A DNA stretch of 64,000 nucleotides from Bacteroidia bacterium (lineage in GTDB: Bacteria; Bacteroidota; Bacteroidia; UBA4408), in the NCBI GenBank assembly GCA_035439485.1, contig DAORKI010000001.1, forward strand, positions 1,287 through 65,286, in the 5' to 3' direction. The notes under the pieces are model-generated. The model saw nothing but the letters and a program-made list of their open reading frames with translations, had not been told where the DNA came from and did not search any database. How positions within the stretch are numbered: the stretch's first letter is position 1; every line of letters begins with the position of its first letter. This document shows positions 10,509 through 56,856 of this stretch, piece by piece. The position numbers were made by a program, and so were the translations under genes.

Positions 10509-10798
10509 TTGTGTAATAAATAATGCGTATATTAAATTTCTTTAAAAGATTTTTACGTATAGGGCATTGCATTTAATTAATTTGCTTATCTTTGAAAACA
10601 ATCATTTAAGCAAATCAATATTGATATTAATAGTATAATAATTGTTGTTAGTGATATAAAGTCTAGTTATAGGAATTACAAAAATGTGTTTTGAATTTCA
10701 ATTAGTTTGTATTTGTACATTATTCTTTTTTAGCAAGGCTTAATAGAATTATACTACATCATTAATTAATTGAAATACGATGAATTAATTTTAGGAAT

Positions 10799-12829
10799 AT
10801 GTTTTATTACAAGTTTGATTTAAAGTATTTATATTTTTTTATAACAAGTATATTTTCATTAATACCTAGTCAACAAGTAGCTGCGCAAAAAAGCGAAATC
10901 TCCCTGCCTCATTCAGGGGTTAAAAAAATAGTACACAGTCCAAATTTAAAGCTCATGGCTGTTGCAGATAAACATGAAGTTCATATTATGCTATCAGGCG
11001 GTAATGTAATCAACAACTCCTTTCATGTTGAATTAAAAGAAATTAATGACATTTGCTTTAGTGCTGATGGTGACAAAGTTTTTGTAGTTGGAGCAAAATC
11101 TAAGAAAAATGCTATTTTAGTTTATGAAGTAAAAACAGGAAACAGAGTAAAATCAATCCCTTTAGAACAAAAAAATATTTTGGCTGTTGCTGCATCTCGT
11201 AATGGTCAGCAAGTTGCGGTTTGTTCTTCTGACAAAATGGCGATGGTTTTCACTCTTGATAGTGATAAACTGCTTTATCAATTTAAAAACCATCATGGAG
11301 TTTTTACTGATTTGGCATTCAATAAAAAGGGAACATCACTTTATTGTAGCAGCAGTAGTGGTCATTTTTTTGATGTTAATACCATCGATGGAAGTTTCAC
11401 CAAAGTATTAAATATCGACAAAGAATACATGGGATGTATTGAAACTTCAAATGATGGAAAATATGTGGCATGTGGTTTTGATAATGGTGTTTGTAAGCTA
11501 TTACATCCTGAAAACAATTATGCCAAGTACCATTTAACAGGGACTCAAAAAAAGATAAATTCTTTAACATTTAGTGAAGACGATCGTTATCTTGCATCAT
11601 CTTGCAAATTGCCCATTGTAAACATTTGGAGTTTAGAAGAGATGGCCATCAAACATCAAATAAATGTTGATAAAGCAAAAGGAATGATTTCTTGCGTTAA
11701 ATTTGATCCTGCAGGAAAAGTGTTATTGGCGAGCGATGCTTCAAGCAAAAGGCTTATTCAAATTGATGTTGCCAATTTGGGCATTGTTCCAAAATCAGTA
11801 TTGCAAAGCAGTTTTGATAAAAATCCACCACAAATTACTGTTACTTCTCCATTGTTGATAAACAACGAAGCTACCATTTTTAATGAAAACTTAGTAATAA
11901 AAGGTGCTGCAATAGACGAAACAGGAATTTATGTATTGAAAGTAAACGGAAATCCAACCAAATATAACGAACAGGGTGAGTTTGTGATTAACCTAAAAGT
12001 AGGTTTAGGCGAAACTAATTTTTTGATTGAAGCCACTGATGTAAACGATTTAACAACAATAAAAAAATTTAAGATTATTAGAAAAACTGCTGAAGATGAA
12101 GTGTTGGATATAGATTATAGTGCAAAAAATTATTTATTGGCAATTGGTATCGACAATTATTCCTTTTGGCCACCTCTAAAAAATGCAGTGAGTGATGCTA
12201 TTACCTTTCAAGAAGTATTAAGAAAAAAATATCATTATTTAGAAGAAAATATTACCATTATAACTAATGAAAAAGCTACAAAACAAAATATCATTGATGC
12301 ATTTAAAGGAATTATTGAAAAGGTTGGCCCTAACGATAAGTTAATTATTTATTTCTCAGGACACGGATATTATGATCAAGTATTAAATGAAGGTTATTGG
12401 ATAACTCAGGATTCTAAAAAAGGGACTGAAGCAGACTATTTACCCAATAGTTTTTTGATTAAAATGTTTAAACAAATAAACGCAAAGCATATCTTCTTAA
12501 TCGCTGATGCCTGCTTTAGTGGTTCCTTATTTATTGATACACAAAGAGGTAATTTATCAAATGCCTCTCAATCTAAATCAAGATGGGGTTTAACCTCAGG
12601 CCGTTTAGAGTTTGTTGATGATGGAACCCAAGGTGAGCACAGTCCATTTGCAAAATATATTATTGAATATTTAAACACCAATATGAAAAGCAAAAGTTCG
12701 GTTACTGATCTTATTACATATGTTAAAGAGAAAGTAACAGCCGAAACAAAGCAAGTGCCTACTGGCAATGCTTTAAATAATGCCGGAGATGAGGGTGGTG
12801 AGTTTATTTTCGAATTATTTGGAAACTAA
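10799..12829 (+). CDS. Secreted WD40 beta-propeller / Ig-like / caspase-like (peptidase C14) protein
   Basis: Signal peptide ends ..QQVAA/QKS. There are about seven WD40-like blades (residues ~40-330), then a beta-sandwich-like linker. The C-terminal C14 domain has the catalytic dyad YFSGHG (His522, nt 12362-12364) and ADACFSG (Cys572, nt 12512-12514). Confidence 0.85.
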   Translation: MFYYKFDLKYLYFFITSIFSLIPSQQVAAQKSEISLPHSGVKKIVHSPNLKLMAVADKHEVHIMLSGGNVINNSFHVELKEINDICFSADGDKVFVVGAKSKKNAILVYEVKTGNRVKSIPLEQKNILAVAASRNGQQVAVCSSDKMAMVFTLDSDKLLYQFKNHHGVFTDLAFNKKGTSLYCSSSSGHFFDVNTIDGSFTKVLNIDKEYMGCIETSNDGKYVACGFDNGVCKLLHPENNYAKYHLTGTQKKINSLTFSEDDRYLASSCKLPIVNIWSLEEMAIKHQINVDKAKGMISCVKFDPAGKVLLASDASSKRLIQIDVANLGIVPKSVLQSSFDKNPPQITVTSPLLINNEATIFNENLVIKGAAIDETGIYVLKVNGNPTKYNEQGEFVINLKVGLGETNFLIEATDVNDLTTIKKFKIIRKTAEDEVLDIDYSAKNYLLAIGIDNYSFWPPLKNAVSDAITFQEVLRKKYHYLEENITIITNEKATKQNIIDAFKGIIEKVGPNDKLIIYFSGHGYYDQVLNEGYWITQDSKKGTEADYLPNSFLIKMFKQINAKHIFLIADACFSGSLFIDTQRGNLSNASQSKSRWGLTSGRLEFVDDGTQGEHSPFAKYIIEYLNTNMKSKSSVTDLITYVKEKVTAETKQVPTGNALNNAGDEGGEFIFELFGN

Positions 12830-12843
12830 AAAAAATATTAGCA

Positions 12844-13665
12844 ATGAAAACACTTATTTTAATTTTTTCAATTGCCTTGCTTAATTTTAATTATGCAATT
12901 AAAGGTGATGACAAGTTCAGTATTATTAAAGTGAACGGAAAGGTTTTGAATGCCAAAAACAAAAAAAAGCTCTCCCCTGGTGACTCCTTAAATCCTAAAG
13001 ATAAATTAGTTTTTGCTGATATGAATGCCTCGTGTTTTATTTACAGTAAAAGCAGTGGTAGATACATGATAAAGGCTGGTGATAAGCTTGAAGTAGATGT
13101 TGAAAATGCTTTAAAACCAGTTGGTTTAAGGTCATCTATTACTACCAGAGGTGCAAGTAATTTAAATGATACTTTACCAATTACTGATTTGTATTATTTT
13201 TTTGGCAAAAACAAATTTATGTTTGTTGATTATGTTACCACACTAAAAATTGATACAAGTATTTTTAATAAAGGAAAAAACAGAATAATGATTGCTAAAT
13301 ATACAGATGACCAAGGTAAATTGCATAATATTGAAATAGGCAAGGCAAATCCAAAACTACGCGTAGATTTAAAAAGCATTTTTAAAGAAATGGATGCAAA
13401 TGGGCAACTTAAAATACAAAAGTTTGAGTTAATTGATTATGACAAATTAACCAAGGATATCAAACATTGTGCATATGTTAATCCAGTGATTGTAAATGAA
13501 AAAGAATTAGCCGAATCGCTTCGATATCTAGTAAATGCTTTGGATGGGGTTGAAAAGAAAAATATATTTTACGATGAGATATATTCATTTGTTTATAATG
13601 AATATGGAGAATTTAACCCAGATGACTTAAAAGTTTTTATGTCGAAAAATAATATTATCAAATAA
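12844..13665 (+). CDS. Secreted protein of unknown function, tandem paralogue A
   Basis: Signal peptide present; starts 14 nt after the caspase gene. About 30% identical by eye to the next ORF along its whole length (KVNG..N...K.KLS.G.S.N..D...F....F..SK..GR..M; LKP...R..ITTR; DL..YFGK..F.F; AKY...GK). Confidence 0.7.
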   Translation: MKTLILIFSIALLNFNYAIKGDDKFSIIKVNGKVLNAKNKKKLSPGDSLNPKDKLVFADMNASCFIYSKSSGRYMIKAGDKLEVDVENALKPVGLRSSITTRGASNLNDTLPITDLYYFFGKNKFMFVDYVTTLKIDTSIFNKGKNRIMIAKYTDDQGKLHNIEIGKANPKLRVDLKSIFKEMDANGQLKIQKFELIDYDKLTKDIKHCAYVNPVIVNEKELAESLRYLVNALDGVEKKNIFYDEIYSFVYNEYGEFNPDDLKVFMSKNNIIK

Positions 13666-13683
13666 CATTAAAATTGAAATGCA

Positions 13684-14514
13684 ATGAAAACAATTAAAAT
13701 TAGTTCAATTTTTTTACTTTTAGTAGTTTTTGCTCAAGCTCAAAATGCATCAAACTACAATGTAGTAAAAGTAAACGGCACCCTTTATAATGCAACTCAA
13801 AAGCAAAAATTATCAACTGGTACATCAGTGAATCAAAATGATGAGGTTGAGTTTGGCTCTTTAACTAATTCTGCCTTTGTAATTAGTAAGGATAATGGAA
13901 GATTTATTATGATTCCTGATAACTCTTTATCAGCTACTGCTGGCACAGTTTTAAAGCCTTTGAGCCGCAGAACTGCAATTACAACCAGAAGCGAATCACA
14001 GGTGAAATTACCTCATAATGATTTATTTAAATACTTTGGAAAAGACAACTTTTTGTTTTTAAATAAAATATCTACGGTTTGGATTGATACCACAAAAATG
14101 AAAATCAATGAAAACAATATGTTGGTTGCAAAATATAAAAACCATGAAGGCAAAGCAATCACCAAAAAATTAATGCTTGAAGGTGATAAATTAGTTATGA
14201 ACCTTGATGAAATTTTTACCGATAAAAACGAAGATGGGAGCAACAAAATGTTTCCTATTGAAATATTTTATTACAATAACCTAACCAAAGAGCTTGCATT
14301 AAAGGCTAGTTTTACACCTATTTTAGCTAACAAAAAGGAAATTGTAAATGAATTTAAAGTTATAGCAGCTACGGTGAATAATTCTGAAAGCAATAATTCC
14401 AATGTTATTTTTGAAGAAATAGAAAGTTTTGTTTTTAATTCATATGGAAATACAAATGAAGATGAATTAAAGCAATTTATTATCTCTAACTTAGAAATTA
14501 GGATGAAGAATTAA
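13684..14514 (+). CDS. Secreted protein of unknown function, tandem paralogue B
   Basis: Signal peptide (..VVFAQA/QN); starts 18 nt after paralogue A. Same conserved blocks as paralogue A. Confidence 0.7.
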   Translation: MKTIKISSIFLLLVVFAQAQNASNYNVVKVNGTLYNATQKQKLSTGTSVNQNDEVEFGSLTNSAFVISKDNGRFIMIPDNSLSATAGTVLKPLSRRTAITTRSESQVKLPHNDLFKYFGKDNFLFLNKISTVWIDTTKMKINENNMLVAKYKNHEGKAITKKLMLEGDKLVMNLDEIFTDKNEDGSNKMFPIEIFYYNNLTKELALKASFTPILANKKEIVNEFKVIAATVNNSESNNSNVIFEEIESFVFNSYGNTNEDELKQFIISNLEIRMKN

Positions 14515-14565
14515 GCACTCAAACTTAGGTTTCTCCTTATTGGGAGAAAAATTTTGAATATTTGC

Positions 14566-14596
14566 AAAAGCGCAGCCTTAAACTGCGCTTTTTCTT
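14566..14596 (+). terminator. Rho-independent terminator after paralogue B
   Basis: AAAAGCGCAG, 7-nt loop, CTGCGCTTTTT. It is preceded by a second hairpin, TTTCTCC-ttattg-GGAGAAA, at 14529-14548. Confidence 0.55.
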
Positions 14597-14692
14597 TTAT
14601 GTTTGTTCAATAAATCTCCAAGAGTGAAATATTAATTCAATTAATTTAAAATAGAACTCATACATTGCAGTTAAATTAAAGAACAAACTAAA

Positions 14693-16594
14693 TTGCAGAA
14701 GTTTAAATTATATATATTTTTTTGTTGTTTAATATGGTCAAGAAATTTTGCATTTGCAACTAAAGAAAGTAGCAAATTCTTAAATAAAGTATACGAATCA
14801 GAACGACTCCTTAATCAACAAATAGATACAGCAAATTCAATTTTAATGCTGGAAGAAAACTTCTCTTATCCAGGCATTGATTTAATTTTTAATAAGTTAA
14901 TAAGTCAGGCTGAAATCAATAAACATGACTTAGGATTAGCAAAAGTGAATTTAAATTATGGTGTTTATTTGTATGCTAAAGGACAGTACGAAAAGTCAAT
15001 TAATTCCTTACTAAACGCCTTAAAAATTTATGAGAAATTAGAATTAACTGCGGAGCAAGCTGATGTAAATAATCAACTTACGCGAGTATACATTAGCCTA
15101 AGTGAAGTACAACCAAACGAAAACACAACTGTAGAAAGTAAAATTCCAGGTATGTTTTTAAAAAGCAATGAACTTGATAGGGCCGAATCATATTGTAGAA
15201 AGGCTCTTAATTACAATAAAATAAACAATAGACTTAGCATGTTAGCCTCTAATTACAATAACTTAGGGGTAATTAAGCAAAAAAAAATGGAGCTCGATTC
15301 AGCTGAATTTTTTTTCAGAGAAGCTTTTAAATATTATGAAAAGTTAGGAGATGTTTTCAATAAAGCCAATATTTTAAACAATTTGGGAATAGTATTTGAA
15401 TTTCAGGGCATGTTCGATCAAGAGTTAAAATCATATCAAGATGCATTAATGTTATTCGAAGAAATATTCGATACTGCTGGAATAGCCATAAGTAATGGAA
15501 ATATTGCCAGTGTTTACTACTCAAACGGTGAGTGTAAGGAGGGACTCAAATTTGCGCAAAAAGGTTATGATTTGGCAGTTCACACACAAAAATTACCTAT
15601 TAAAAAGGATATGTTGTACACGCTATTTGTTTTGTACGATTGCCTTGGCGATTGTGATAAGAAATCATTTTACTTTAATAGATATATTGAAGTAAAAGAT
15701 TCAATTTTTAATATTGAATCTAAGAAAATTTTAGAAGATGTGAATGCTCAATATGAAACAGAGAAAAAGGAAAATCAAATATTATTATTAAGCAAAAGTA
15801 AAGAGTTAGATGAAACCATTAAAAAAGCATTAACAGCAGGCATCGGACTAACAGTAATATTAGTTATGGTAGTTTTTAGAAGTTACCGACAAAAACAAAG
15901 AGCTAATGTATTATTAACCACACAAAATGAAATTATTGAATCTGAAAGAAAAAAATCGGATGCCTTACTATTAAATATTTTACCTGTTGAAACCGCCCAA
16001 GAATTAAAAGAAAAGGGCTTTGCTGAAGCGCGAACATTTGAATCTGTAACAGTAATGTTTACCGATTTCAAGGACTTTACTAAAGTGGCCGAATCATTAG
16101 ATGCTACTAGCCTGGTTAAAGAAATAGATCATGTATTTAAAAAATTTGACGAAATCATAACTTTTTATAGTATTGAAAAAATTAAAACTATTGGTGATGC
16201 TTATATGGCTGCTGCAGGTTTACCAATTGAAAACAACACGCACGCCATTGATATGGTAAAGGCTGCAATGGAAATTTTAGAGAGTATCGAAGAAATAAAG
16301 AATGAAAGAAAAAGTAAAGGCTTGCCTTATTTTGAAATTCGAATAGGAATTCATACTGGGCCTGTAGTTGCTGGAATTGTTGGCACCAAAAAATTTGCCT
16401 ATGACATTTGGGGAGATGCCGTAAATGTGGCTAGTAGAATGGAAAGCAGCGGAGAGGCAGGGAAAATCAATATTTCAGGTAGCACATATAATCAAATAAA
16501 GGATTACTTTATTTGTACTTATCGTGGTAAAGTTACAGCTAAAAACAAAGGCGATATTGATATGTATTTTGTTGAAGGAAGTAAAAGCCAATGA
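14693..16594 (+). CDS. TPR-repeat sensor / single TM / class III adenylate cyclase
   Basis: TTG start with a hydrophobic N-terminus. About 350 aa of TPR-like repeats, then a TM helix (GIGLTVILVMVVF). The cyclase domain has metal-binding Asp residues (VMFTDFKDFT; IGDAYM), the substrate pair Lys498 (IKTIGDAYM) and Asp571 (YDIWGD), and the transition-state motif NVASRMES. Confidence 0.85.
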   Translation: MQKFKLYIFFCCLIWSRNFAFATKESSKFLNKVYESERLLNQQIDTANSILMLEENFSYPGIDLIFNKLISQAEINKHDLGLAKVNLNYGVYLYAKGQYEKSINSLLNALKIYEKLELTAEQADVNNQLTRVYISLSEVQPNENTTVESKIPGMFLKSNELDRAESYCRKALNYNKINNRLSMLASNYNNLGVIKQKKMELDSAEFFFREAFKYYEKLGDVFNKANILNNLGIVFEFQGMFDQELKSYQDALMLFEEIFDTAGIAISNGNIASVYYSNGECKEGLKFAQKGYDLAVHTQKLPIKKDMLYTLFVLYDCLGDCDKKSFYFNRYIEVKDSIFNIESKKILEDVNAQYETEKKENQILLLSKSKELDETIKKALTAGIGLTVILVMVVFRSYRQKQRANVLLTTQNEIIESERKKSDALLLNILPVETAQELKEKGFAEARTFESVTVMFTDFKDFTKVAESLDATSLVKEIDHVFKKFDEIITFYSIEKIKTIGDAYMAAAGLPIENNTHAIDMVKAAMEILESIEEIKNERKSKGLPYFEIRIGIHTGPVVAGIVGTKKFAYDIWGDAVNVASRMESSGEAGKINISGSTYNQIKDYFICTYRGKVTAKNKGDIDMYFVEGSKSQ

Positions 16595-16681
16595 TGCCTT
16601 ATTGACAATTAAATAACCAAAATTAAAATGTAAATTATATATTTGTAACAAAGGTTTAAAATTTTTTATAATATGATTTCG

Positions 16682-18376
16682 ATGAGATTGATTCAAATTT
16701 TTATGTTTATAGCAGCGCTTGGTACCTCTAAGTTGGTGTTTGCTCAAGAAAAAGTTGATCCAACAGAAAGTGCTCCTAAGCAATACGACTCAAAAAATTA
16801 CAAAGCTGCATTAAGAGGTTATACGGAGCTAATTAAAAGCGATAGCAATAATCCCGAATACAACTTGCGCTTGGCTATTTGTATGTTAAAAACCAATGTA
16901 ATTAAAAGTAATGCATATACATATCTTGAAAAATATTTCCAATCGGATATGGCCGAAAATCAATATTATTTCGATTTAGGGCAAGCTTATCATTTTGCCT
17001 TAAAATTTGAAGATGCTATAAACGCTTACAATAAGTTTATTGAACTCAATCCCAAAAAGAAAACTGAAATTGAATTTGCAAAGCTTGGCGTAGAACAGTG
17101 TAATAATGGAAAAGAACTTATCAAAAAGCCTTTAAATGTTTCTTTCGAAAATTTAGGTAAAAAAGTTAATTCAGAATTTGCCGATTACTATCCATTTTTA
17201 CCTACAAATGAATCGTTTGTTGTTTTTACAACCAGACGTCCAGGTAATACAGGTGGTGTAATTGACCCGGATGGATATTATACCTCAGAAATGTACATTT
17301 CTGAATGGAAAAACTCTTCTTGGACAAAATCAAAAGGAGTTAATGCAAAATTAAACACTGAATATGATGAAGAAGTGGTGGGTTTAAGTGCCGATGGAAA
17401 ACAAATGTTGGTGTATATTGACCATGAAGACACTTATGGTGATATTTACATTTCTGAATTTGAAAAAAGTGGTTTTGGCTTAGCCGTTGATTTAGGAAAG
17501 GTAATTAATACAAATAAGGTTGAATCGGCTGCTTCAATTAGCCCTGATGGTAATACACTAGTGTATGCAAGTTTTAGGTCCGATGGAAAGGGAAGTTCAG
17601 ACTTATGGGTTTCAAAAAAATTACCTGATGGTACTTGGGGTAAACCAATAAATTTAGAGGAGTTGAACACTCCTTATGGTGAAGATTTTCCTCGAATTAC
17701 TGCTGACGGAAATTCAATATTATTTGCTTCACAAGGTTTTGGAAGTATGGGTGGTTTTGATGTTTTTAAAGCCGATTGGGACAGCGTTAATCAAAGGTAC
17801 AAAGAGCCAGTAAATATTGGTTATCCAATTAATACGCCTGAAGATAATATGACCATTTGTTTTATGGAAAACGGAAGAAGTGCTTATATTTCGGCAGTTA
17901 GAGAAGATGGTTTGGGAGATTTTGATTTGTATCGTGTGGTTTTTGAAGATGTGCCTCCAAAACTCTCCGTAATTACTGCAAACATAATTGCAAGTGCTGA
18001 TACAGGAAAAGCCGGTATTAATGCCGAAATTATAGTGAATTACTTACCCACAAATAACAAACAAGGTGAATATAAAACGTATAGAAATGGGAAAGTAGCC
18101 ATAGCTCTTGATGCTGGTAGGTATGAGTTAATTGTAAATTGTAATGGCTATAAAAAATATGTAAAGGATATTAATGTGGATAATAGAAAAAAATACACCG
18201 AAATTATTCCAATGACCATTAATTTAGAACCTTTGTTTACACCGCCTCCACCAAAGGCAAAAGATAAAACTAAGAGAGGCAAAACAGATCCCAAAGCCAA
18301 AGATACTAAAGGCACACCAACAAAAGCGGGAGAGGCAAGCCCAAAAAAAGCTAGCCCAGCAACAAAACCAAAATAA
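16682..18376 (+). CDS. Secreted TPR + TolB-like (PD40) beta-propeller + carboxypeptidase-regulatory-like domain protein with Lys/Pro-rich tail
   Basis: Signal peptide MRLIQIFMFIAALGTSKLVFA/QE. N-terminal TPR region. PD40-type repeats (SADGKQMLVY, SISPDGNTLVYAS, RITADGNSILFAS). The last 45 aa are TPPPPKAKDKTKRGKTDPKAKDTKGTPTKAGEASPKKASPATKPK. Confidence 0.75.
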   Translation: MRLIQIFMFIAALGTSKLVFAQEKVDPTESAPKQYDSKNYKAALRGYTELIKSDSNNPEYNLRLAICMLKTNVIKSNAYTYLEKYFQSDMAENQYYFDLGQAYHFALKFEDAINAYNKFIELNPKKKTEIEFAKLGVEQCNNGKELIKKPLNVSFENLGKKVNSEFADYYPFLPTNESFVVFTTRRPGNTGGVIDPDGYYTSEMYISEWKNSSWTKSKGVNAKLNTEYDEEVVGLSADGKQMLVYIDHEDTYGDIYISEFEKSGFGLAVDLGKVINTNKVESAASISPDGNTLVYASFRSDGKGSSDLWVSKKLPDGTWGKPINLEELNTPYGEDFPRITADGNSILFASQGFGSMGGFDVFKADWDSVNQRYKEPVNIGYPINTPEDNMTICFMENGRSAYISAVREDGLGDFDLYRVVFEDVPPKLSVITANIIASADTGKAGINAEIIVNYLPTNNKQGEYKTYRNGKVAIALDAGRYELIVNCNGYKKYVKDINVDNRKKYTEIIPMTINLEPLFTPPPPKAKDKTKRGKTDPKAKDTKGTPTKAGEASPKKASPATKPK

Positions 18377-18403
18377 CTTATATTGTTTGAATAACACTTT
18401 TTA

Positions 18404-19210
18404 ATGCAACTAAAACTCACCAAACCCATAGCATTTTTTGATTTAGAAACAACAGGTGTAAATGTAGCCTCAGATAGAATTGTTGAAATTTGTATAATCA
18501 AGGTAATGCCCGATGGCAGTAAAGAAAAATACGAACAAAGGGTAAACCCAGAAATGCCTATTCCATTAGCTTCTTCCTTAGTCCATGGTATTTATGACAA
18601 GGATATTGAAGAAATGCCAACTTTCAAAAAATTAGCGAAAACAATTGCAAACTTTATAGGGAATAGTGATTTAGCTGGTTACAATTCGAATAAATTTGAC
18701 ATTCCTGTTTTAGTAGAGGAATTTCTGAGGGCTGAGGTTGACTTTGACTTGGAAAATAGAAGAACTGTTGATGTGCAAAATATTTTTCATCAAATGGAAC
18801 AAAGAACCTTAAAGGCGGCTTACAGGTTTTATTGCAATAAAGAAATTATTAATGCGCATTCAGCGGAAGCAGATGTTACTGCTACCTATGAAGTTTTATT
18901 AGCGCAACTTGAAAAATATAAGGATGCTGAGTTTGAAGATAAGAATGGTGTAAAATCAAAACCAGTACAAAATGATGTAAAAGCATTACACGAATTTACA
19001 AATATCAATAAAAACGTTGATTTGGCAGGTCGAATTATTTATAATGATAAAGGAATTGAAGTGTTTAACTTTGGAAAACATGCCGGCAAACCCGTGAGTG
19101 AAGTGTTAAAAAATGAACCTTCTTATTTTGCTTGGATGCTGAATGGCGATTTTCCACTTTACACCAAAAAAGTGCTAACAGCCCTTAAATTGCGTGATTT
19201 TAATAAGTAA
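18404..19210 (+). CDS. DEDDh-type 3'-5' exonuclease (DnaQ/epsilon-like domain protein)
   Basis: Exo I FFDLETTG, Exo II GYNSNKFDIPVL, Exo III HSAEADV. Confidence 0.8.
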   Translation: MQLKLTKPIAFFDLETTGVNVASDRIVEICIIKVMPDGSKEKYEQRVNPEMPIPLASSLVHGIYDKDIEEMPTFKKLAKTIANFIGNSDLAGYNSNKFDIPVLVEEFLRAEVDFDLENRRTVDVQNIFHQMEQRTLKAAYRFYCNKEIINAHSAEADVTATYEVLLAQLEKYKDAEFEDKNGVKSKPVQNDVKALHEFTNINKNVDLAGRIIYNDKGIEVFNFGKHAGKPVSEVLKNEPSYFAWMLNGDFPLYTKKVLTALKLRDFNK

Positions 19211-19236
19211 TATTTTTTGAATTTAATTTTGTTATT

Positions 19237-20367
19237 TTGAAAGTTGTTATTGTTGGTCCTGCTTTTCCATTACGAGGTGGTATTGCCAATTTTAATGAAT
19301 CGCTTTGTCGAGAGTTTGTTAAGGCCAATCATAATGCCTCCATTTACTCCTTTTCATTACAATACCCTTCGTTTCTATTTCCCGGCACAACACAGTATGA
19401 TACAGGAAAAGGCCCAGCTGATATCAGCATTAAAACCGTAATTAATTCAATTAATCCTTTGAATTGGATAAGCACTGCACTTAAAATAAAGAAAGAAAAA
19501 CCCGATTTGGTTATAGTTCGCTTTTGGATTCCTTTCATGGCGCCATGTTTAGGAACGATTATGCGTATTATAAAGTTTAATTCAAACATCAAAATTATTG
19601 CGATTACTGATAATGTAATTCCACATGAAAAGCGTTTTGGGGATCGTATTTTTACTAAGTATTTTGTAAAATCCTGTCAAGGCTTTGTTGCCATGTCAAA
19701 AGCTGTTTTAAATGATTTAAATAACTTTACAATTAATCAAAATAAAGCTTTTATTCCTCATCCTATTTACGATACTTTTGGCGAAAAAGTGAGCAAAAAA
19801 GATGCCTTACAAAAATTAAAACTTGACCCTAGTAAGCATTATATTTTGTTTTTTGGTTTTATCAGACAGTACAAAGGCTTAGATTTATTACTCAAAGCCA
19901 TGGCCGATGCGCAAATAAAAAAATTAAATATACATTTAATTGTGGCAGGCGAGTTTTACGAAAGTCCAGAACCCTATTTAGAACTCATTCAAAAAGGTAA
20001 TTTAGAAGGGCATTTAATTTTAAATACGCATTACATTCATACTGATTTAGTGAAGTATTATTTTTGTGCTGCCGATTTAATAGTTCAACCTTATCATACT
20101 GCCACGCAAAGTGGTGTAACACAAATAGCCTATCATTTCGAAAGACCAATGTTGGTAACCAATGTAGGAGGTTTAGCCGAAATGGTGCCTCACCAAATAT
20201 GCGGCTATGTAGCTGAACGTGACCCACAACAAATTGCCCAATATATTAAAGATTTTTATTTAGAAAGTAGGGAAGAAGATATGGTTAAAAACACCATCCA
20301 AGAAAAGAAAAACTTTTCATGGCAGGCCATGGTACAAGGAATACTAAACCTCAAAAAACAACTTTAA
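19237..20367 (+). CDS. Glycosyltransferase, GT4 (group 1) family
   Basis: The N-terminus KVVIVGPAFPLRGGIANF and a C-terminal GT-B region (..QPY..ATQSGV...A..F..P.LVT.VGGL.E.V) fit the family. TTG start. Confidence 0.75.
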   Translation: MKVVIVGPAFPLRGGIANFNESLCREFVKANHNASIYSFSLQYPSFLFPGTTQYDTGKGPADISIKTVINSINPLNWISTALKIKKEKPDLVIVRFWIPFMAPCLGTIMRIIKFNSNIKIIAITDNVIPHEKRFGDRIFTKYFVKSCQGFVAMSKAVLNDLNNFTINQNKAFIPHPIYDTFGEKVSKKDALQKLKLDPSKHYILFFGFIRQYKGLDLLLKAMADAQIKKLNIHLIVAGEFYESPEPYLELIQKGNLEGHLILNTHYIHTDLVKYYFCAADLIVQPYHTATQSGVTQIAYHFERPMLVTNVGGLAEMVPHQICGYVAERDPQQIAQYIKDFYLESREEDMVKNTIQEKKNFSWQAMVQGILNLKKQL

Positions 20368-20447
20368 TCAAAAACTTTAATCAGCATTTTTGGCTTAATA
20401 AATTTCACTCCTCAGGTTTTCACAATTACCAAAGCTAGTTGCTTTTT

Positions 20448-22157
20448 TCACTTCTGTAAAACCCCATCTTTAAAAAAGGCAACCTTATAAATTTTTCCTT
20501 TACGATTGTAACTTTCCCATTTTCCATCCTTTTTGCCTTCCTTAAAATTTCCTTTATCCATTATGGTTCCCACATCATAGTAACTAGTCATGCTGCCATC
20601 AGGCTTTCCATTTTTATACTCAATCTCTTCAAATTTGCCTCCATTTTCATAATAAAAAGTCCACTTTCCTATTCTTTTACCTTTTTTGAATTCACCTTCT
20701 TCTTTCACATTGCCATTGCTAAAATAACTACGCGATAAACCATCTTCTTCTCCTTTAAAATAAGTTATTTCTTTTTCTTTTTTACCGTCCGGATAATTAT
20801 AAATCCAAAGTTTATCCTTTTTTCCCAACAAATAATTTCCACTATATTTTTGTTTCCCATTTTCATGAAAACCTTGCCATTGTTTATCCATAACGCCTTT
20901 AGTATAAGTTCCTTCATCTTTTTTATTACCATTATCATGGTATGAAACCCAATTACCTTCTTCTTTTCCTAAAACAAATTCTCCTTCATAAAATAATTTT
21001 CCGTTTTCGTAAAATGCCTGCCAATGGCCTGTTTTGAGATCATCTTTAAAATTTCCTTTGCGCCAAATTTGTCCCTTGGGATAATAAAAAGTCCAAGTAC
21101 TATCACTTAATCCATTTTTATAAAAGCCTGTAGATTCTGGTTTTCCATTCTCAAAATAATTTGTCCAACTCCCATTTTGCTTATCGTTTTCAAAATTACC
21201 TTCCATTTCTAGTGAACCGTTATTTCTGTAAAAACGCCACGTTCCACACTTTTTTGCTTCACATAATCGGCCTTCTTTTTCAACTTTTCCATTGGTAAAC
21301 CAATATTTAGCAGGTCCATTTTTGATCCCAGCCATGTATGTAAGTTCAAATTCTTTAACCCCTAATGATGTGAAAAATTGCCATACACTATCTTGAAATC
21401 CATCTTTATATTTTCCGAATGATTTTTTTGTGCCATCAGGAAAGTAATAGGTACAATAGCCATTGCCATTTTTTACAATTGTTTTCCCTTTTTCATTAAA
21501 ATAGTTTTGTAATTGATAAACACCTTTTAAATAGGTGCCTTCTTCCTTTAGGTTGCCGTCAACAAAGTATTTGCTCCATTTACCAACTTCAATTCCAGCA
21601 TCAAAAAAACCACTTATCGAAAGTTTTCCATTTTCGTTGTAAGATTTAAATGGGCCTGTTTGCAGGTTATTTTCAAAAGTTCCCTCACTTTGTAAAACTC
21701 CATTTTCGTACCAGTACTTCCAAACACCCTCTTTTTTGTTAAGTTTATACCATCCTTCACTTTTCATTTTCCCATTTTCATACCATTCTTGCCAAACACT
21801 GTCGGGTAAATCCTTTTTGTAAAAAGTCGATAGGGCAGTATTGCCATTTTTAAAATAAAAAATTGATTTTCCTGATTTCTTACCAGCATAATAATTTTCT
21901 TCTGCTTTTACTTTTCCATCTTCATAATAACGCATCAAAGCACCAAACTCCTTACCTTCTCGATAATTTAGCTCTTTGGCTAGCTTACCATTTTCATAGT
22001 AATAGCTTTGTTTTCCATGTTGCAACCCGTTTTTATCGTAATTTTCTTCAGATTTAATATTTCCATTTTGATATTTTTCAATACGAGGTTGGCCATAAAG
22101 TACCCCAAAGCAAAGGATGTAAAAGAGTAATAGATATTTTTTCAAATTGATTTTCAT
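20448..22157 (-). CDS. Secreted MORN-variant (YwqK-like) repeat protein
   Basis: Signal peptide ..VLYG/QP, then more than 20 repeats of the ~23-aa unit G.W..YYENGK...EG.Y..GK..G. Confidence 0.8.
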   Translation of the reverse strand: MKINLKKYLLLFYILCFGVLYGQPRIEKYQNGNIKSEENYDKNGLQHGKQSYYYENGKLAKELNYREGKEFGALMRYYEDGKVKAEENYYAGKKSGKSIFYFKNGNTALSTFYKKDLPDSVWQEWYENGKMKSEGWYKLNKKEGVWKYWYENGVLQSEGTFENNLQTGPFKSYNENGKLSISGFFDAGIEVGKWSKYFVDGNLKEEGTYLKGVYQLQNYFNEKGKTIVKNGNGYCTYYFPDGTKKSFGKYKDGFQDSVWQFFTSLGVKEFELTYMAGIKNGPAKYWFTNGKVEKEGRLCEAKKCGTWRFYRNNGSLEMEGNFENDKQNGSWTNYFENGKPESTGFYKNGLSDSTWTFYYPKGQIWRKGNFKDDLKTGHWQAFYENGKLFYEGEFVLGKEEGNWVSYHDNGNKKDEGTYTKGVMDKQWQGFHENGKQKYSGNYLLGKKDKLWIYNYPDGKKEKEITYFKGEEDGLSRSYFSNGNVKEEGEFKKGKRIGKWTFYYENGGKFEEIEYKNGKPDGSMTSYYDVGTIMDKGNFKEGKKDGKWESYNRKGKIYKVAFFKDGVLQK

Positions 22158-35756: not shown

Positions 35757-36629
35757 TTATTTATTTTCCTTCTCTGTTTCATATCTAATTATCTTGCCAT
35801 CTCTAACTATAGCTATCTTTTCAATTTTCCCTTCTTTATAATAATATTGCTTTCCTTCAATTAATTTTGCATTTTTAAACTCACCTTCACGATCTATTTT
35901 GCCTTCCTTTGTAAATGTTTTATTATAACCATCTTTAATTACTCCTAATTGAGGGTTTGCGGGTGGTTTAACTTCTTCCTTAGGTGTTTCAATTTTTGGT
36001 TCAACAGCCTTTACTTCTTTAGGAGCATATGTTTTAATACTAGTGGTATCGAGTTTTCCATCATAAAAAAATTTTTCACTTTTTAAAGCACCATTTTCAT
36101 AATATTCTTTTATCACGCCAGCCTCTTTTCCGCCATTCCATTCGCCATCAAACATTAAATTACCGTTATCATAAAAGTATTTTTGCCTACCTGTTCTTTT
36201 ACCTCCTTGGTCATACTCCCATTCATAATACAATTTTCCGTTTGGATGATACATTTTATAGACACCAATCCAGCCAACACTATTCCATGTGCCTTCCTCT
36301 TTTAATTTGCCATCTTGATAATAATCTTTTGAAGAAATGCTTCTGTCAGCATTATAAACTAACTCATTTTTTATTTTTCCATTGCAGTAATATCTGCGCC
36401 ACGTTCCTGTTTTTCTATTATCTTTATAGTAACCTTCTTCAATTTTTGTTCCCGCAGTGCAGCCCTCGGCATCTTCACCATCGCTATTTTCAATCCATTT
36501 ACCTTGCTTCCACCCTTGCTCATCGGTTTTATTCAAACTGTCACTTTGTGCCAATAACAGCATTGGAATAAATCCAAAACAAAGAAAGAAAAAGCGAGAT
36601 ATCATCTTACTATTCATCAACTTATTCAT
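35757..36629 (-). CDS. Secreted MORN-variant (YwqK-like) repeat protein
   Basis: Signal peptide ..MLLLA/QSD, about 8 G.W..YY.NGK...E..Y repeats, and a Pro/Lys/Glu-rich spacer before the last repeats. Confidence 0.8.
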   Translation of the reverse strand: MNKLMNSKMISRFFFLCFGFIPMLLLAQSDSLNKTDEQGWKQGKWIENSDGEDAEGCTAGTKIEEGYYKDNRKTGTWRRYYCNGKIKNELVYNADRSISSKDYYQDGKLKEEGTWNSVGWIGVYKMYHPNGKLYYEWEYDQGGKRTGRQKYFYDNGNLMFDGEWNGGKEAGVIKEYYENGALKSEKFFYDGKLDTTSIKTYAPKEVKAVEPKIETPKEEVKPPANPQLGVIKDGYNKTFTKEGKIDREGEFKNAKLIEGKQYYYKEGKIEKIAIVRDGKIIRYETEKENK

Positions 36630-55822: not shown

Positions 55823-55897
55823 CCACAATTATCATAAGTAAAAGTTAATTATTAATAAACAAATAAAGGTAACTTGCAAGACGTAAAAAATTCTGAA

Positions 55898-56446
55898 ATG
55901 CTTGATATTTACGAGTTTTACGACAAAATGGAACGTAATAAAATTATGCTTTCATTTAAAGGAGACATTACATCTGAGTTACTCACTTCTATACTTCAAA
56001 TTATGGAAAGCAAGTTAGATAACTTGCAAGAAGAACCCAAAATCAAGAAAAAAGTTTATAATGTGCTTGTGGAGTGTTTGCAAAATCTATATCATCACCT
56101 AGATGTAGATTTAAATGACAACTCTGAAAGAGCAAAAAAGTACCGTTCCGCCATATTTATGATAGGAAAAATAGGTACTGAATACAATATTATTACAGGA
56201 AATTATATTTTAAATGAAAACGTGGCCAATTTACGCGAGAAATTGAATAGAATTAATGTAATGAGTAAAGATGAATTAAAAGAATATTACAAAGAAATTT
56301 TAAATAACGATGAATTCTCCGAAAAAGGAGGTGGTGGGCTTGGAATGATTGATATTGCAAGAAAGTCGGGACAAAAATTAAATTTTAACTTTGTTAATAT
56401 TGATAGTCAGTTTTCTTTTTTTAGTTTAAACATTAAAATATCTTAA
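55898..56446 (+). CDS. SiaB-like protein kinase (DUF6272, GHKL/anti-sigma-like ATPase fold)
   Basis: The ORF is open from TTG 55874; I prefer ATG 55898. IMLSFKGDIT and the C-terminal GGGGLGMIDIARKSG ATP-lid-like motif match what I recall of the SiaB family. Confidence 0.65.
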   Translation: MLDIYEFYDKMERNKIMLSFKGDITSELLTSILQIMESKLDNLQEEPKIKKKVYNVLVECLQNLYHHLDVDLNDNSERAKKYRSAIFMIGKIGTEYNIITGNYILNENVANLREKLNRINVMSKDELKEYYKEILNNDEFSEKGGGGLGMIDIARKSGQKLNFNFVNIDSQFSFFSLNIKIS

Positions 56447-56472
56447 CCCTAATATAACCCCTAATAAATACG

Positions 56473-56856
56473 ATGGAAACTTTACTAATAGAAGGCTCAG
56501 CAAAAACACCAACCATTAAATTTGATGCAGAGCAAGGAATTATTGAAATAAAAGGAAGATCAATTCCTGAAAACTCAATTGAATTTTACAAACCATTAAT
56601 TGATTGGTTAGAAAAGTATTCAGGAAAGCCTAAATCAAATACTATTGTTAATATACAATTGGAGTACTTTAATACTAGTTCTTCAAAATGCATATTGGAT
56701 GTTTTTAAAAAATTGGAATCTATTAACAAAGGTGGTCAGAGCCAAGTAGTTATCAATTGGCATTATGAAGAAGATGATGAAGACATGAGCGAAGCAGGTG
56801 AAGATTATCAAGCTATTATTAATGTGCCATTTAAAATGGTTATGGTGCAAGAGTAA
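56473..56856 (+). CDS. DUF1987 (SiaC-like) partner-switch protein
   Basis: LLIEGSAKTPTIKFDAEQGIIEIKGRSIPENSIEFYKPLIDWL....LEYFNTSSSKCILD......INWHYEEDDEDM.EAGED is essentially the DUF1987 consensus as I recall it. Confidence 0.8.
   Translation: METLLIEGSAKTPTIKFDAEQGIIEIKGRSIPENSIEFYKPLIDWLEKYSGKPKSNTIVNIQLEYFNTSSSKCILDVFKKLESINKGGQSQVVINWHYEEDDEDMSEAGEDYQAIINVPFKMVMVQE

Follow-up and report, generated by a model that had tools for sequence, protein, structure and literature searches.

We examined a 64,000-nt stretch of Bacteroidia DNA (the window) and, with somewhat more confidence than doubt, read a gene cluster within it as an extracytoplasmic, proteolysis-linked signalling module that consists of a protease, its substrate from a secreted family here called FAM, and a receptor adenylate cyclase. 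No published description of such a module was found in the literature.

The cluster and its exported products

The ORF list of the window has five co-directional genes, all on the + strand (10799 to 18376), each with an export signal, as the original prediction had it. The intergenic gaps are, in order, 14, 18, 178 and 78 nt; the first three are as predicted, but the last had been put at about 87 nt. Read by hand from the sequence, each of the five N-termini combines a basic n-region with a hydrophobic core. A small-x-small cleavage site is present in four of the products (VAA/Q, AQA/Q, AFA/T and VFA/Q, the slash marking the cut), and the site of the first FAM paralogue, NYA/I, is less canonical. 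Signal peptides are also found on orthologues whose N-terminal sequences differ.

We ran the regular expression TAnnTTTG, the consensus of Bacteroidetes sigma-A promoters, over the intergenic regions of the window. It matched a Bacteroidetes-type -7 promoter box, TATCTTTG (10587..10594, +), upstream of the caspase gene, by consensus match only, and two promoter-like -7 boxes, likewise regex matches, for the cyclase gene (TATGTTTG; 14598..14605, +) and the PorE-like gene (TATATTTG; 16638..16645, +). Two hairpins follow FAM paralogue B (14530..14592, +), the first at 14530-14549 and the second, a strong intrinsic terminator, at 14566-14592 with a T run. Hairpins at 14529-14596 had been taken to imply at least two transcription units; the terminator bears this out, and with the promoter-like boxes it makes three units probable. 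These elements part paralogue B from the cyclase gene and the cyclase gene from the PorE-like gene, which counts against a module.

The first gene (10799..12829, +) encodes an exported protease of 676 aa with WD40, Ig-like and Peptidase_C14 parts, as judged from Pfam, motifs, alignment to metacaspase structures, and orthologues that are 47-53% identical and hold the same gene position. It has a signal peptide (aa 1-30), a WD40 propeller and a C14 domain (PF00656, aa 446-655; 60 bits against a Pfam cut-off of 21.4). The predicted His/Cys dyad is intact, with His522 in FSGHG and Cys572 in DACFSG, and a further motif, AVSDA, is present. In alignments to the metacaspase structures 6w8s and 4f6o, the His region matches the SGHG motif, and Asp570 (Cys-2) and Asp466 align with metacaspase Asp positions. 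By comparison with the S1 pockets of metacaspases, these two are candidates for an acidic S1 pocket that would give Arg/Lys specificity. The Asp that matches the metacaspase CVND motif is present in most FAM-linked C14 copies and, with the Asp at Cys-2, suggests that the C14 proteases have basic P1 specificity. GHG and D[AT]C.[SG]G are intact in each of the 18 FAM-linked C14 domains. Among the FAM-linked CHAT genes, the HG motif is retained throughout, and the SACET Cys motif everywhere but in loci L035 and L039. A signal peptide stands at the start of every complete FAM-linked protease, and judging from their sequences these enzymes look active and exported.

The fourth gene (14693..16594, +; TTG start) encodes a receptor adenylate cyclase of 633 aa with TPR (TPR_12) and Guanylate_cyc (PF00211, 186.9 bits) matches. 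A signal peptide (aa 1-22) is followed by a periplasmic TPR region, a single TM helix (aa 379-397) and a class III domain (aa 446-629) whose top PDB matches are adenylate cyclases. The topology proposed earlier, with the protease and FAM exported, the cyclase behind a single TM helix and its TPR sensor in the same compartment, agrees with these predictions. All six class III catalytic residues are present (FTD458F, K498TIGD502, YD571IWG and N578VASR582M); in class III cyclases they form two metal-binding Asp residues, the adenine-specifying Lys/Asp pair and the Asn/Arg transition-state pair, and the cytoplasmic domain is active-looking. The TPR sensor part of the cyclase recurs in TPR-TM-SpoIIE proteins: one, in locus L003, adjoins C14 and FAM genes, and another, P0220, shares 59% identity with it across the sensor region.

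We give next to no credence to a role in anti-phage defence or conflict, as in caspase-effector or Pycsar systems. PADLOC returned only domain-level matches ('caspase' and PycC), and the NCBIfam model caspase_w_EACC1 gave the caspase 65.8 bits, under its cut-off of 140, with no EACC1-like gene among the neighbours. Every component is exported or membrane-anchored with a periplasmic sensor domain, and membership of the Pycsar and caspase systems was rejected. The cluster also lacks an NTPase sensor, effector or EACC1 component, the cyclase combines Lys/Asp adenylate specificity with a receptor architecture, and the flanking genes are housekeeping genes.

The fifth gene (16673..18376, +) encodes an exported protein of 567 aa that is PorE/CHU_0125-like by Pfam and NCBIfam; whether it belongs to the module is uncertain. 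It has TPR, PD40 propeller and CarboxypepD_reg domains and a Lys/Pro-rich tail where an OmpA domain is expected; no match to the OmpA peptidoglycan-binding domain was found in it, whereas the related PorE-like protein of L003 does have OmpA. Its scores of 142 bits for PorE and 174 for CHU_0125 do not reach the NCBIfam cut-offs of 600 and 620, and identity with either (PorE being a T9SS protein) was rejected. PorE-like proteins turn up at 12 FAM loci, chiefly CHAT-type ones, and neither L133 nor L134, the distant cyclase-type loci described below, has one. The five-gene module first proposed thus stands for caspase, FAM and cyclase, and less firmly for this gene. Its product may be an envelope scaffold of the module, as the weakest link in it; that it is an unrelated neighbour is plausible.

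FAM and its conserved arginine

Paralogues A (12844..13665, +; 273 aa) and B (13684..14514, +; 276 aa) are 34% identical (E 2e-48) and match no Pfam or NCBIfam model. Predicted as two tandem paralogues of unknown fold, they belong to a real, unnamed family of about 270 aa. An exhaustive profile search gave at least 524 representative clusters at 50% identity, nearly all of 260-290 aa, and scanning GTDB genomes with a degenerate motif gave at least 119 stretches, about 112 with a confirmed FAM gene, almost all from Bacteroidota.

Paralogue A is built of a signal peptide, an N-terminal beta-sandwich (aa 25-92), a disordered linker, a second beta domain and a C-terminal three-helix unit. The pLDDT of its AF2 model is 79.6 and falls below 50 in the linker (aa 97-116). 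This linker contains the motif ITTR102/G (nt 13138-13152), and paralogue B has ITTR102/S (nt 13978-13992). Across the family the motif reads [LIMV]-S-[TS]-R-[GSA]; its Arg is the best-conserved residue (262 of 268 sequences), and the P1' position after it is G, S or A in 237 of the 268. An Arg motif in a linker modelled as disordered between two domains fits cutting by an Arg-specific, metacaspase-type protease, and we infer that FAM is cleaved there.

It is possible, though doubtful, that FAM is instead a cognate regulator (inhibitor, chaperone or adaptor) of the protease or the sensor, with signalling by binding and release. On this reading the Arg motif would either mimic a substrate as a reactive loop or serve as a linear motif to which the WD40, TPR or propeller domains bind; short linear peptides are typical ligands of such domains. 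Next to a cysteine protease gene, operons often carry one for a small beta-rich inhibitor (staphostatins and chagasin are examples); moreover, the commonest neighbour of FAM is a sensor and not a protease, and FAM is intact in a relative, L032, whose caspase gene is deleted. However, Arg plus a small residue in a disordered linker resembles the cleavage site of Arg-specific clan-CD proteases, canonical inhibitor loops are usually rigid, and no similarity of FAM to known inhibitor families was found.

The cluster might also be an accessory system for envelope maintenance or secretion (PorE-like, T9SS-related or outer-membrane-tethering), which we consider unlikely. Processing of surface or periplasmic proteins would fall to the protease, and FAM would be a structural periplasmic protein with an N-domain that acts as a LapA-type plug or retention domain. 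The best PDB match of this domain is indeed the MpIBP/LapA-type retention domain 5ix9 (TM 0.64, prob 1.0), but at a Foldseek E-value of only 0.11; the LapA counterpart precedes a flexible protease site (bioRxiv 10.1101/198937). The fifth gene has the PorE/CHU_0125-like architecture, albeit with scores far under the cut-offs and the OmpA domain missing, and L133 and L134 have genes for Kelch lipoproteins and OMP beta-barrels upstream. Against these points, FAM has no T9SS C-terminal domain, RTX repeats or adhesin repeats, and it is mostly partnered by signalling proteins whose outputs are cytoplasmic.

Neighbourhoods of FAM in Bacteroidota

We sampled 111 independent Bacteroidota FAM loci as 8-kb chunks and sorted the neighbours into classes with home-made HMMs and simple ORF calls; Pfam searches of representatives back these classes (Y_Y_Y with SpoIIE, TPR with CHAT, WD40 with C14, and CHASE2). 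At the 98 loci where the next gene downstream is visible, FAM is followed by a membrane sensor in 64 (propeller/Y_Y_Y in 41, CHASE2 in 23), and the same-strand gene upstream, visible in 91, is CHAT in 12 and C14 in 8. The chunk includes an exported CHAT or C14 protease at 39 of the 111 loci, a lower bound because 8-kb chunks clip the context. That FAM is also found alone counts against the module: it has no partner in the visible chunk at 28 of the 111 loci, and it is an orphan in two of three loci viewed with 10-kb flanks. Stand-alone CHASE2 follows FAM in 25 related loci, many of which have a C14 or CHAT gene ahead of the pair (the order in L023 is WD40-C14, FAM, CHASE2); in the window no CHASE2 gene is present beside FAM. 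Propeller/Y_Y_Y sensors usually carry a PP2C output, and a PP2C phosphatase is the common output of FAM loci, a cyclase a rare one. Across the family, FAM shows a linkage to exported clan-CD proteases and membrane sensors, and the arrangement recurs in unrelated contexts, beyond what chance would give.

Conservation of the neighbourhood beyond close relatives had been set in advance as the test of the proposal, and the core of the proposal withstands it. In L133, whose cyclase is 52% identical to that of the window, WD40-C14, FAM and TPR-cyclase genes follow in order with gaps of 8 and 12 nt, and L134 (cyclase 45% identical) has the same order with gaps of 11 and 111 nt. The downstream flanking genes of these two loci differ. 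Caspase, FAM and cyclase have diverged from the window in parallel, at 52.5/55.0/52.3% identity in L133 and 47.3/47.5/45.5% in L134, and the single FAM of these loci is orthologous to paralogue B, with which it shares 55% and 47% identity; with paralogue A the values are 34% and 31%. As a negative control, a generic TPR-cyclase of 41% identity adjoins an HD hydrolase and a cNMP-binding kinase, with no FAM or caspase. Since L133 and L134 keep the trio and the generic cyclase does not, caspase, FAM and cyclase form a conserved unit despite the terminator.

It is thus very unlikely that only the caspase and FAM form a unit, with the cyclase and PorE-like genes as unrelated neighbours that are syntenic by chance in this lineage. 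Such a reading would suit the terminator and separate promoter-like boxes, the abundance of TPR-TM-cyclases in Bacteroidota (more than 5000 matches), the generic cyclase without FAM linkage, and L032, where large deletions in the caspase and cyclase genes, the latter mostly missing, leave both FAM genes and the PorE-like gene intact. However, the trio is packed together in the different contexts of L133 and L134 and has diverged in parallel, and a membrane sensor follows FAM at most visible loci. From L032 it follows that FAM may have a function that needs neither caspase nor cyclase. The cyclase shares its architecture and catalytic residues with receptor class III adenylate cyclases, including the Bacteroidota TPR-TM-cyclases, and differs from them in its linkage to caspase and FAM, which is seen only in the subclade that shares at least about 45% identity with it.

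Related systems and the proposed signalling route

The original prediction likened the cluster to CHAT / FecR-like / CHASE2 neighbourhoods, and this holds in part: CHASE2 does follow FAM in related loci, but no homology of FAM to FecR was detected. None of 107 FAM members matched the FecR profile (PF04773) at E <= 1, the window paralogues gave nothing with it at E <= 10, and Foldseek against the PDB, with the full FAM model and its N-domain, returned no FecR or PupR match. The CHAT-FecR-CHASE2 pairing in proteobacteria and cyanobacteria was found neither in the literature searched nor in two plasmids spot-checked. FecR/CHASE2 clusters are described as the Burkholderia 'BiofilmReg' operon, LysM-FecR / CHASE2-histidine kinase (PMC5192318), and as a Campylobacterota cluster of a CHASE2 adenylate cyclase, a FecR outer-membrane protein, a TPR protein and a phosphodiesterase (PMC9239204). 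As in the window, a gene for a small exported protein stands beside a membrane sensor whose output can be an adenylate cyclase, with TPR proteins in the cluster, and FAM directly precedes CHASE2 in related Bacteroidota loci. In contrast, FAM has no detectable FecR domain, the window sensor is TPR and not CHASE2, and an exported clan-CD protease is added. To our knowledge, no FecR/CHASE2 cluster is understood mechanistically.

Orthocaspases and metacaspases occur with accessory WD40, TPR or CHASE2 domains, caspase-CHASE2 fusions are reported from cyanobacteria, and programmed cell death in the cytoplasm, rather than signalling at the envelope, is the focus of the published models (PMC7475262, PMC5756287). 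The window protease shares with them the C14 p20-type domain, the His/Cys dyad and the WD40 fusion, and the caspase-CHASE2 fusions mirror the C14-FAM-CHASE2 gene linkage; it is unlike them in its signal peptide, dedicated secreted partner and linked receptor. In the LapG/LapD/LapA system, a periplasmic cysteine protease is placed under an inner-membrane second-messenger receptor (bioRxiv 10.1101/198937). Features in common with the proposed module are the periplasmic cysteine protease, a substrate with an N-terminal beta-sandwich and then a flexible linker that holds the site, and coupling to a nucleotide second messenger across the inner membrane. However, LapG is a C93 transglutaminase-like enzyme that cuts Ala-Ala, information in the Lap system runs inside-out from c-di-GMP to the protease, and LapA is a giant T1SS adhesin. 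No LapG (C93) or LapD domain and no RTX adhesin with an Ala-Ala site occur in the cluster, and the sole tie is the weak 5ix9 fold match.

Envelope signalling by proteolysis is known from DegS/RseA and DegP/CpxP-CpxA, and protease-generated ligands from Spaetzle/Toll. These share with the proposed module the sequence of extracytoplasmic protease, small protein and transmembrane transducer, as a functional analogy only; their protease clans and components are unrelated, and no homology is implied.

In the module as we propose it, the C14 metacaspase-type protease would reside in the periplasm or envelope, with its WD40 part as a recognition or regulatory domain. It would act on one or two FAM proteins, each predicted to consist of two beta-sandwich domains and a helical tail with the Arg motif in the linker. 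The single-pass receptor would hold its TPR domain in the compartment of the protease and its class III cyclase in the cytoplasm. Either a cue that acts through the WD40 domain or the availability of substrate would prompt the protease to cleave FAM on the C-terminal side of the conserved Arg; in its intact or its cleaved form, FAM may then bind the periplasmic domain of the receptor and switch cAMP synthesis up or down. In most relatives the protease-FAM pair would be wired not to a cyclase but to a propeller/Y_Y_Y-TM-PP2C protein, a histidine kinase or a stand-alone CHASE2 protein. Through this module, proteolysis outside the cytoplasm is probably converted into an intracellular signal.

Architecture of the five-gene cluster

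The original prediction placed an envelope proteolysis-to-cAMP signalling module at 10799-18376, starting from a cluster of five genes with exported products, and the presence of that cluster was confirmed. Five ORFs lie on the forward strand, separated by gaps of 14, 18, 178 and 78 nt. Pfam and NCBIfam scans identified a WD40 propeller and Peptidase_C14 in the first product (the caspase, 10799-12829), TPR repeats and a class III cyclase domain in the fourth (14693-16594), and TPR, PD40 and CarboxypepD_reg in the fifth (PorE-like, 16673-18376). No model in either collection matched the second and third (A, 12844-13665, and B, 13684-14514; 273 and 276 aa), which are paralogues (34% identity, E 2e-48) of a family for which we use the working name FAM. 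Apparent Sec signal peptides were read at all five N-termini, and signal peptides also occur in orthologues whose N-terminal sequences are unrelated. The single internal hydrophobic helix among the five products is that of the cyclase (aa 379-397). The caspase retains His522 and Cys572, while the cyclase retains both metal-binding Asp residues, the Lys/Asp adenine-specifying pair and the Asn/Arg pair; since its catalytic residues are all kept, an active adenylate cyclase is predicted. A strong terminator lies 3' of paralogue B, consensus matches to Bacteroidetes-type -7 boxes lie 5' of the caspase, cyclase and PorE-like genes, and the cluster probably comprises three transcription units.

Elsewhere in the window, the reverse strand encodes two secreted MORN_2-repeat proteins (20448-22157 and 35757-36629), the first of which (569 aa) consists almost entirely of repeats. 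On the forward strand at 55874-56856, a DUF6272 (SiaB-like) gene adjoins a SiaC-family phosphoprotein gene (Pfam 144 and 150 bits). PP2C partner-switching phosphatases typically act on pairs of this sort. PP2C is the usual output of FAM modules outside the window, and no PP2C gene was found among the scanned window proteins.

The FAM family and its linker motif

A word-indexed homologue search reached close FAM relatives only, and an exhaustive profile search was used instead. At E <= 1e-3 it returned 524 representative clusters, almost all with lengths of 260-290 aa. FAM is a new family, exceeding 500 clusters, that has no Pfam model. Homology of FAM to FecR found no support in Pfam: when 107 diverse members were scanned, no family matched consistently, FecR included.

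In the AlphaFold model of FAM (pLDDT 79.6), a signal peptide leads into a small beta-sandwich (aa 25-92), which a disordered linker (aa 97-116, where pLDDT drops below 50) joins to a second beta domain; three helices make up the C-terminus. An Arg within the disordered linker is the best-conserved position of the family (262 of 268 sequences). It lies in the motif [LIMV]-S-[TS]-R-[GSA], with G, S or A at P1' in 237 of the 268; in the window, paralogue A has ITTR|G at this point and paralogue B has ITTR|S. From two Asp residues, one at Cys-2 and the other aligned to the CVND motif of metacaspases, the C14 protease would be expected to prefer a basic P1 and to cut FAM after the Arg.

In Foldseek searches, the full-length model gave weak Ig-like or FN3-like matches only. 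The best match of the N-terminal domain modelled alone (pLDDT 86.7) was 5ix9 (TM 0.64, prob 1.0, but E 0.11), the domain by which LapA-type adhesins are retained in the periplasm. A flexible stretch with the LapG cleavage site follows this domain in LapA (bioRxiv 10.1101/198937). The LapG/LapD/LapA system is among the nearest published cases by its logic only. Comparison of the FAM profile with PDB sequences gave one insignificant match, to the dynein-light-chain-like domain of a Fasciola calcium-binding protein (5fx0, E 0.17). This match covers the ...Y-G-K-T-D region in the C-terminal helices of FAM (profile positions 206-259).

Genomic linkage of FAM to proteases and receptors

No stretch of the FAM alignments (107 and 19 sequences) was conserved enough for alignment-based locus finding, and the N-terminal FAM motif was back-translated to a hand-designed degenerate DNA pattern as a replacement probe. 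The pattern matched once in the window and not at all in shuffled sequence. A scan of GTDB genomes yielded at least 119 stretches, in about 112 of which the FAM HMM confirmed a FAM gene. Among the matches listed, confirmed loci are nearly all from Bacteroidota (Bacteroidales, Cytophagales, Flavobacteriales including Parvicellaceae, and Chitinophagales), with a few from Ignavibacteria; matches in other phyla are few and mostly lack a FAM gene. Neighbouring ORFs were clustered, representatives were identified by Pfam, and class HMMs were built from these.

Five kinds of partner recur: TPR-CHAT proteins (about 1050-1450 aa), WD40- or TPR-Peptidase_C14 proteins, propeller/Y_Y_Y-TM-SpoIIE (PP2C) sensors (about 1085 aa; one locus, L128, has a histidine-kinase output), stand-alone CHASE2 membrane proteins (about 400 aa; 36.6 bits against a cut-off of 26.3) and PorE-like proteins. 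For the 111 independent loci among the matches listed, the gene downstream of FAM is a propeller/Y_Y_Y sensor in 41 of 98 visible cases and CHASE2 in 23, and the upstream same-strand gene encodes CHAT in 12 of 91 and C14 in 8. A clan-CD protease is visible somewhere in 39 of the 111 and neither partner in 28; since each locus is an 8-kb chunk, these neighbourhood counts are minimum values. When flanks of 10 kb were examined, two FAM genes out of three were orphans and the third lay in a FAM-CHASE2-Y_Y_Y-kinase arrangement. Every FAM-linked protease with a complete N-terminus has a signal peptide, and catalytic motifs are kept in all FAM-linked C14 genes and in all but two CHAT genes. At one locus (L043), FAM and a Y_Y_Y-SpoIIE sensor are followed by genes with Pfam matches to a cytidine-deaminase fold and to Peptidase_S41 (CtpB-like, PDZ), the latter of which would bring another class of periplasmic protease close to the FAM module; L079 and L104 have genes of matching size at these positions.

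Among the motif-scan matches listed, cyclase-type loci came from close relatives of the window only, and for this reason a search was run from the cyclase side. TPR-TM-cyclases are very common (more than 5000 matches). The two nearest non-syntenic orthologues of the window cyclase (52% and 45% identity) each lie directly 3' of WD40-C14 and FAM genes, with gaps of 8 and 12 nt in locus L133 and 11 and 111 nt in L134, and with differing downstream genes. Their FAM genes were confirmed by HMM and carry ITTR[SA] motifs, and caspase, FAM and cyclase diverge in parallel (52.5/55.0/52.3% and 47.3/47.5/45.5%). A generic TPR-cyclase (41% identity) has an HD hydrolase and a cNMP-binding kinase as neighbours, with no FAM or caspase gene. 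Linkage, parallel divergence and the unlinked generic cyclase together argue that caspase, FAM and cyclase form a conserved unit. The lone FAM gene of L133 and L134 is the orthologue of paralogue B, making paralogue A a lineage-specific extra copy. A very widespread TPR-cyclase, P0259 (L135-L137), which the contig index lists in 494 blocks, has flanking genes for an HD phosphohydrolase and a cNMP-binding histidine kinase, and this locus looks like a compact unit for making, breaking and sensing cAMP in Bacteroidota.

Usually the module is wired to PP2C, with the cyclase as a rare alternative output, and the sensor half is exchangeable. Locus L003 has the order TPR-TM-SpoIIE, TPR-C14, FAM. A TPR-TM-SpoIIE phosphatase, P0220 (L132, 8001-10049), has a sensor half 59% identical to the TPR half of the window cyclase, a resemblance that suggests a recent swap of output domain. 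P0220 does not adjoin FAM, and three small genes without Pfam matches upstream of it on the other strand did not match the FAM HMM.

The PorE-like gene may plausibly belong to the module. Its product resembles PorE and CHU_0125 but falls far below their cut-offs and lacks an OmpA domain; a Lys/Pro/Ala-rich low-complexity tail (PPPPKAKDKTKRGKTDPKAKDTKG..., 18230-18376) stands in place of the OmpA peptidoglycan-binding domain of related PorE-like proteins such as that of L003. A homologue in a Bacteroidia MAG (L032) is nearly as long (568 aa), with 81% identity from end to end. Among the matches listed, 12 FAM loci have a PorE-like protein, mostly encoded directly 3' of a TPR-CHAT gene, and no PorE-like gene was found in L133 or L134. 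There, the co-directional genes directly upstream of the caspase encode a Kelch-propeller protein (in L133 probably a lipoprotein) and a small OMP beta-barrel (L133 3049-5085, L134 2981-5021), which may be further outer-membrane components of this variant.

Locus L001 (GCA_964268615.1), from a close relative, is uninformative on conservation, as its housekeeping flanks are syntenic too. At 18147-20822, just after a glycosyltransferase gene, it has a third, frameshift-split FAM gene and then a Y_Y_Y-SpoIIE sensor, where the window has a MORN-repeat gene; the many split genes of this assembly suggest sequencing errors.

A possible periplasmic proteolytic pathway

By sequence, the module offers active-looking exported proteases, a secreted partner with a near-invariant linker Arg, a receptor whose sensor lies in the same compartment, and conserved linkage. 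The original interpretation is partly supported and narrows to a core of three parts (protease, FAM and receptor), whose output can be exchanged and for which a cleavage site is predicted. On the favoured, moderately probable reading, the C14 protease would cut FAM after the linker Arg, and intact or cleaved FAM would then modulate the receptor and hence cAMP. We more tentatively propose, as a possible though rather unlikely extension, a widespread and so far undescribed Bacteroidota periplasmic pathway in which an exported C14 or CHAT protease would cut the pro-ligand FAM at this Arg and processed FAM would switch the receptor, as a bacterial counterpart of Spaetzle/Toll-type signalling. Its output would be interchangeable: adenylate cyclase in the window and, at other loci, CHASE2, a histidine kinase or a partner-switching phosphatase of the PP2C type.

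The chief alternative to cleavage is that FAM acts by binding, as a regulator or inhibitor, and is not a substrate; L032 (about 76% nucleotide identity to the window) bears on both views. Here some 600 nt are gone inside the caspase gene (window 11770-12368), as are about 1.7 kb (window 14523-16199) that include the terminator and roughly the first 500 cyclase codons; the PorE-like gene and both FAM genes remain intact. FAM can thus persist without the other two, as would suit a binding role; the shared loss, however, hints at caspase and cyclase acting together. The two genes may truly have decayed together, or the deletions may be an artefact of MAG assembly. A defence-system reading was rejected on a defence-system scan and topology.

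The proposed cleavage pathway would fall within extracytoplasmic signalling by regulated proteolysis, which is already known. Although bacteria have many caspase homologues (orthocaspases, CHAT proteases), few have a known substrate or role; to our knowledge, exported ones are essentially unstudied. Literature searches returned no description of FAM or of the module, and none of the CHAT-FecR-CHASE2 pairing mentioned in the original prediction. The nearest published systems are operons of a FecR-domain protein and a CHASE2 kinase (PMC5192318), a Campylobacterota CHASE2 cyclase/FecR/TPR cluster (PMC9239204) and orthocaspase-CHASE2 fusions (PMC7475262). A Bacteroidota CHASE2 protein had no tblastn match in plasmids, and two CHAT plasmid loci (Tolypothrix, Shinella) had no FecR or CHASE2 neighbours, a spot check and not a refutation of that pairing.

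The locus provides a concrete candidate protease-substrate-receptor triplet with predicted cleavage sites and, in cAMP, a simple read-out. If the pathway is real, exported bacterial caspase homologues would gain a physiological role that has nothing to do with cell death. The locus may also open a first functional route to three abundant classes of orphan Bacteroidota sensors (TPR-TM-cyclases, propeller/Y_Y_Y-PP2C proteins and stand-alone CHASE2), and would aid understanding of the poorly understood accessory protein-CHASE2 clusters of other phyla.
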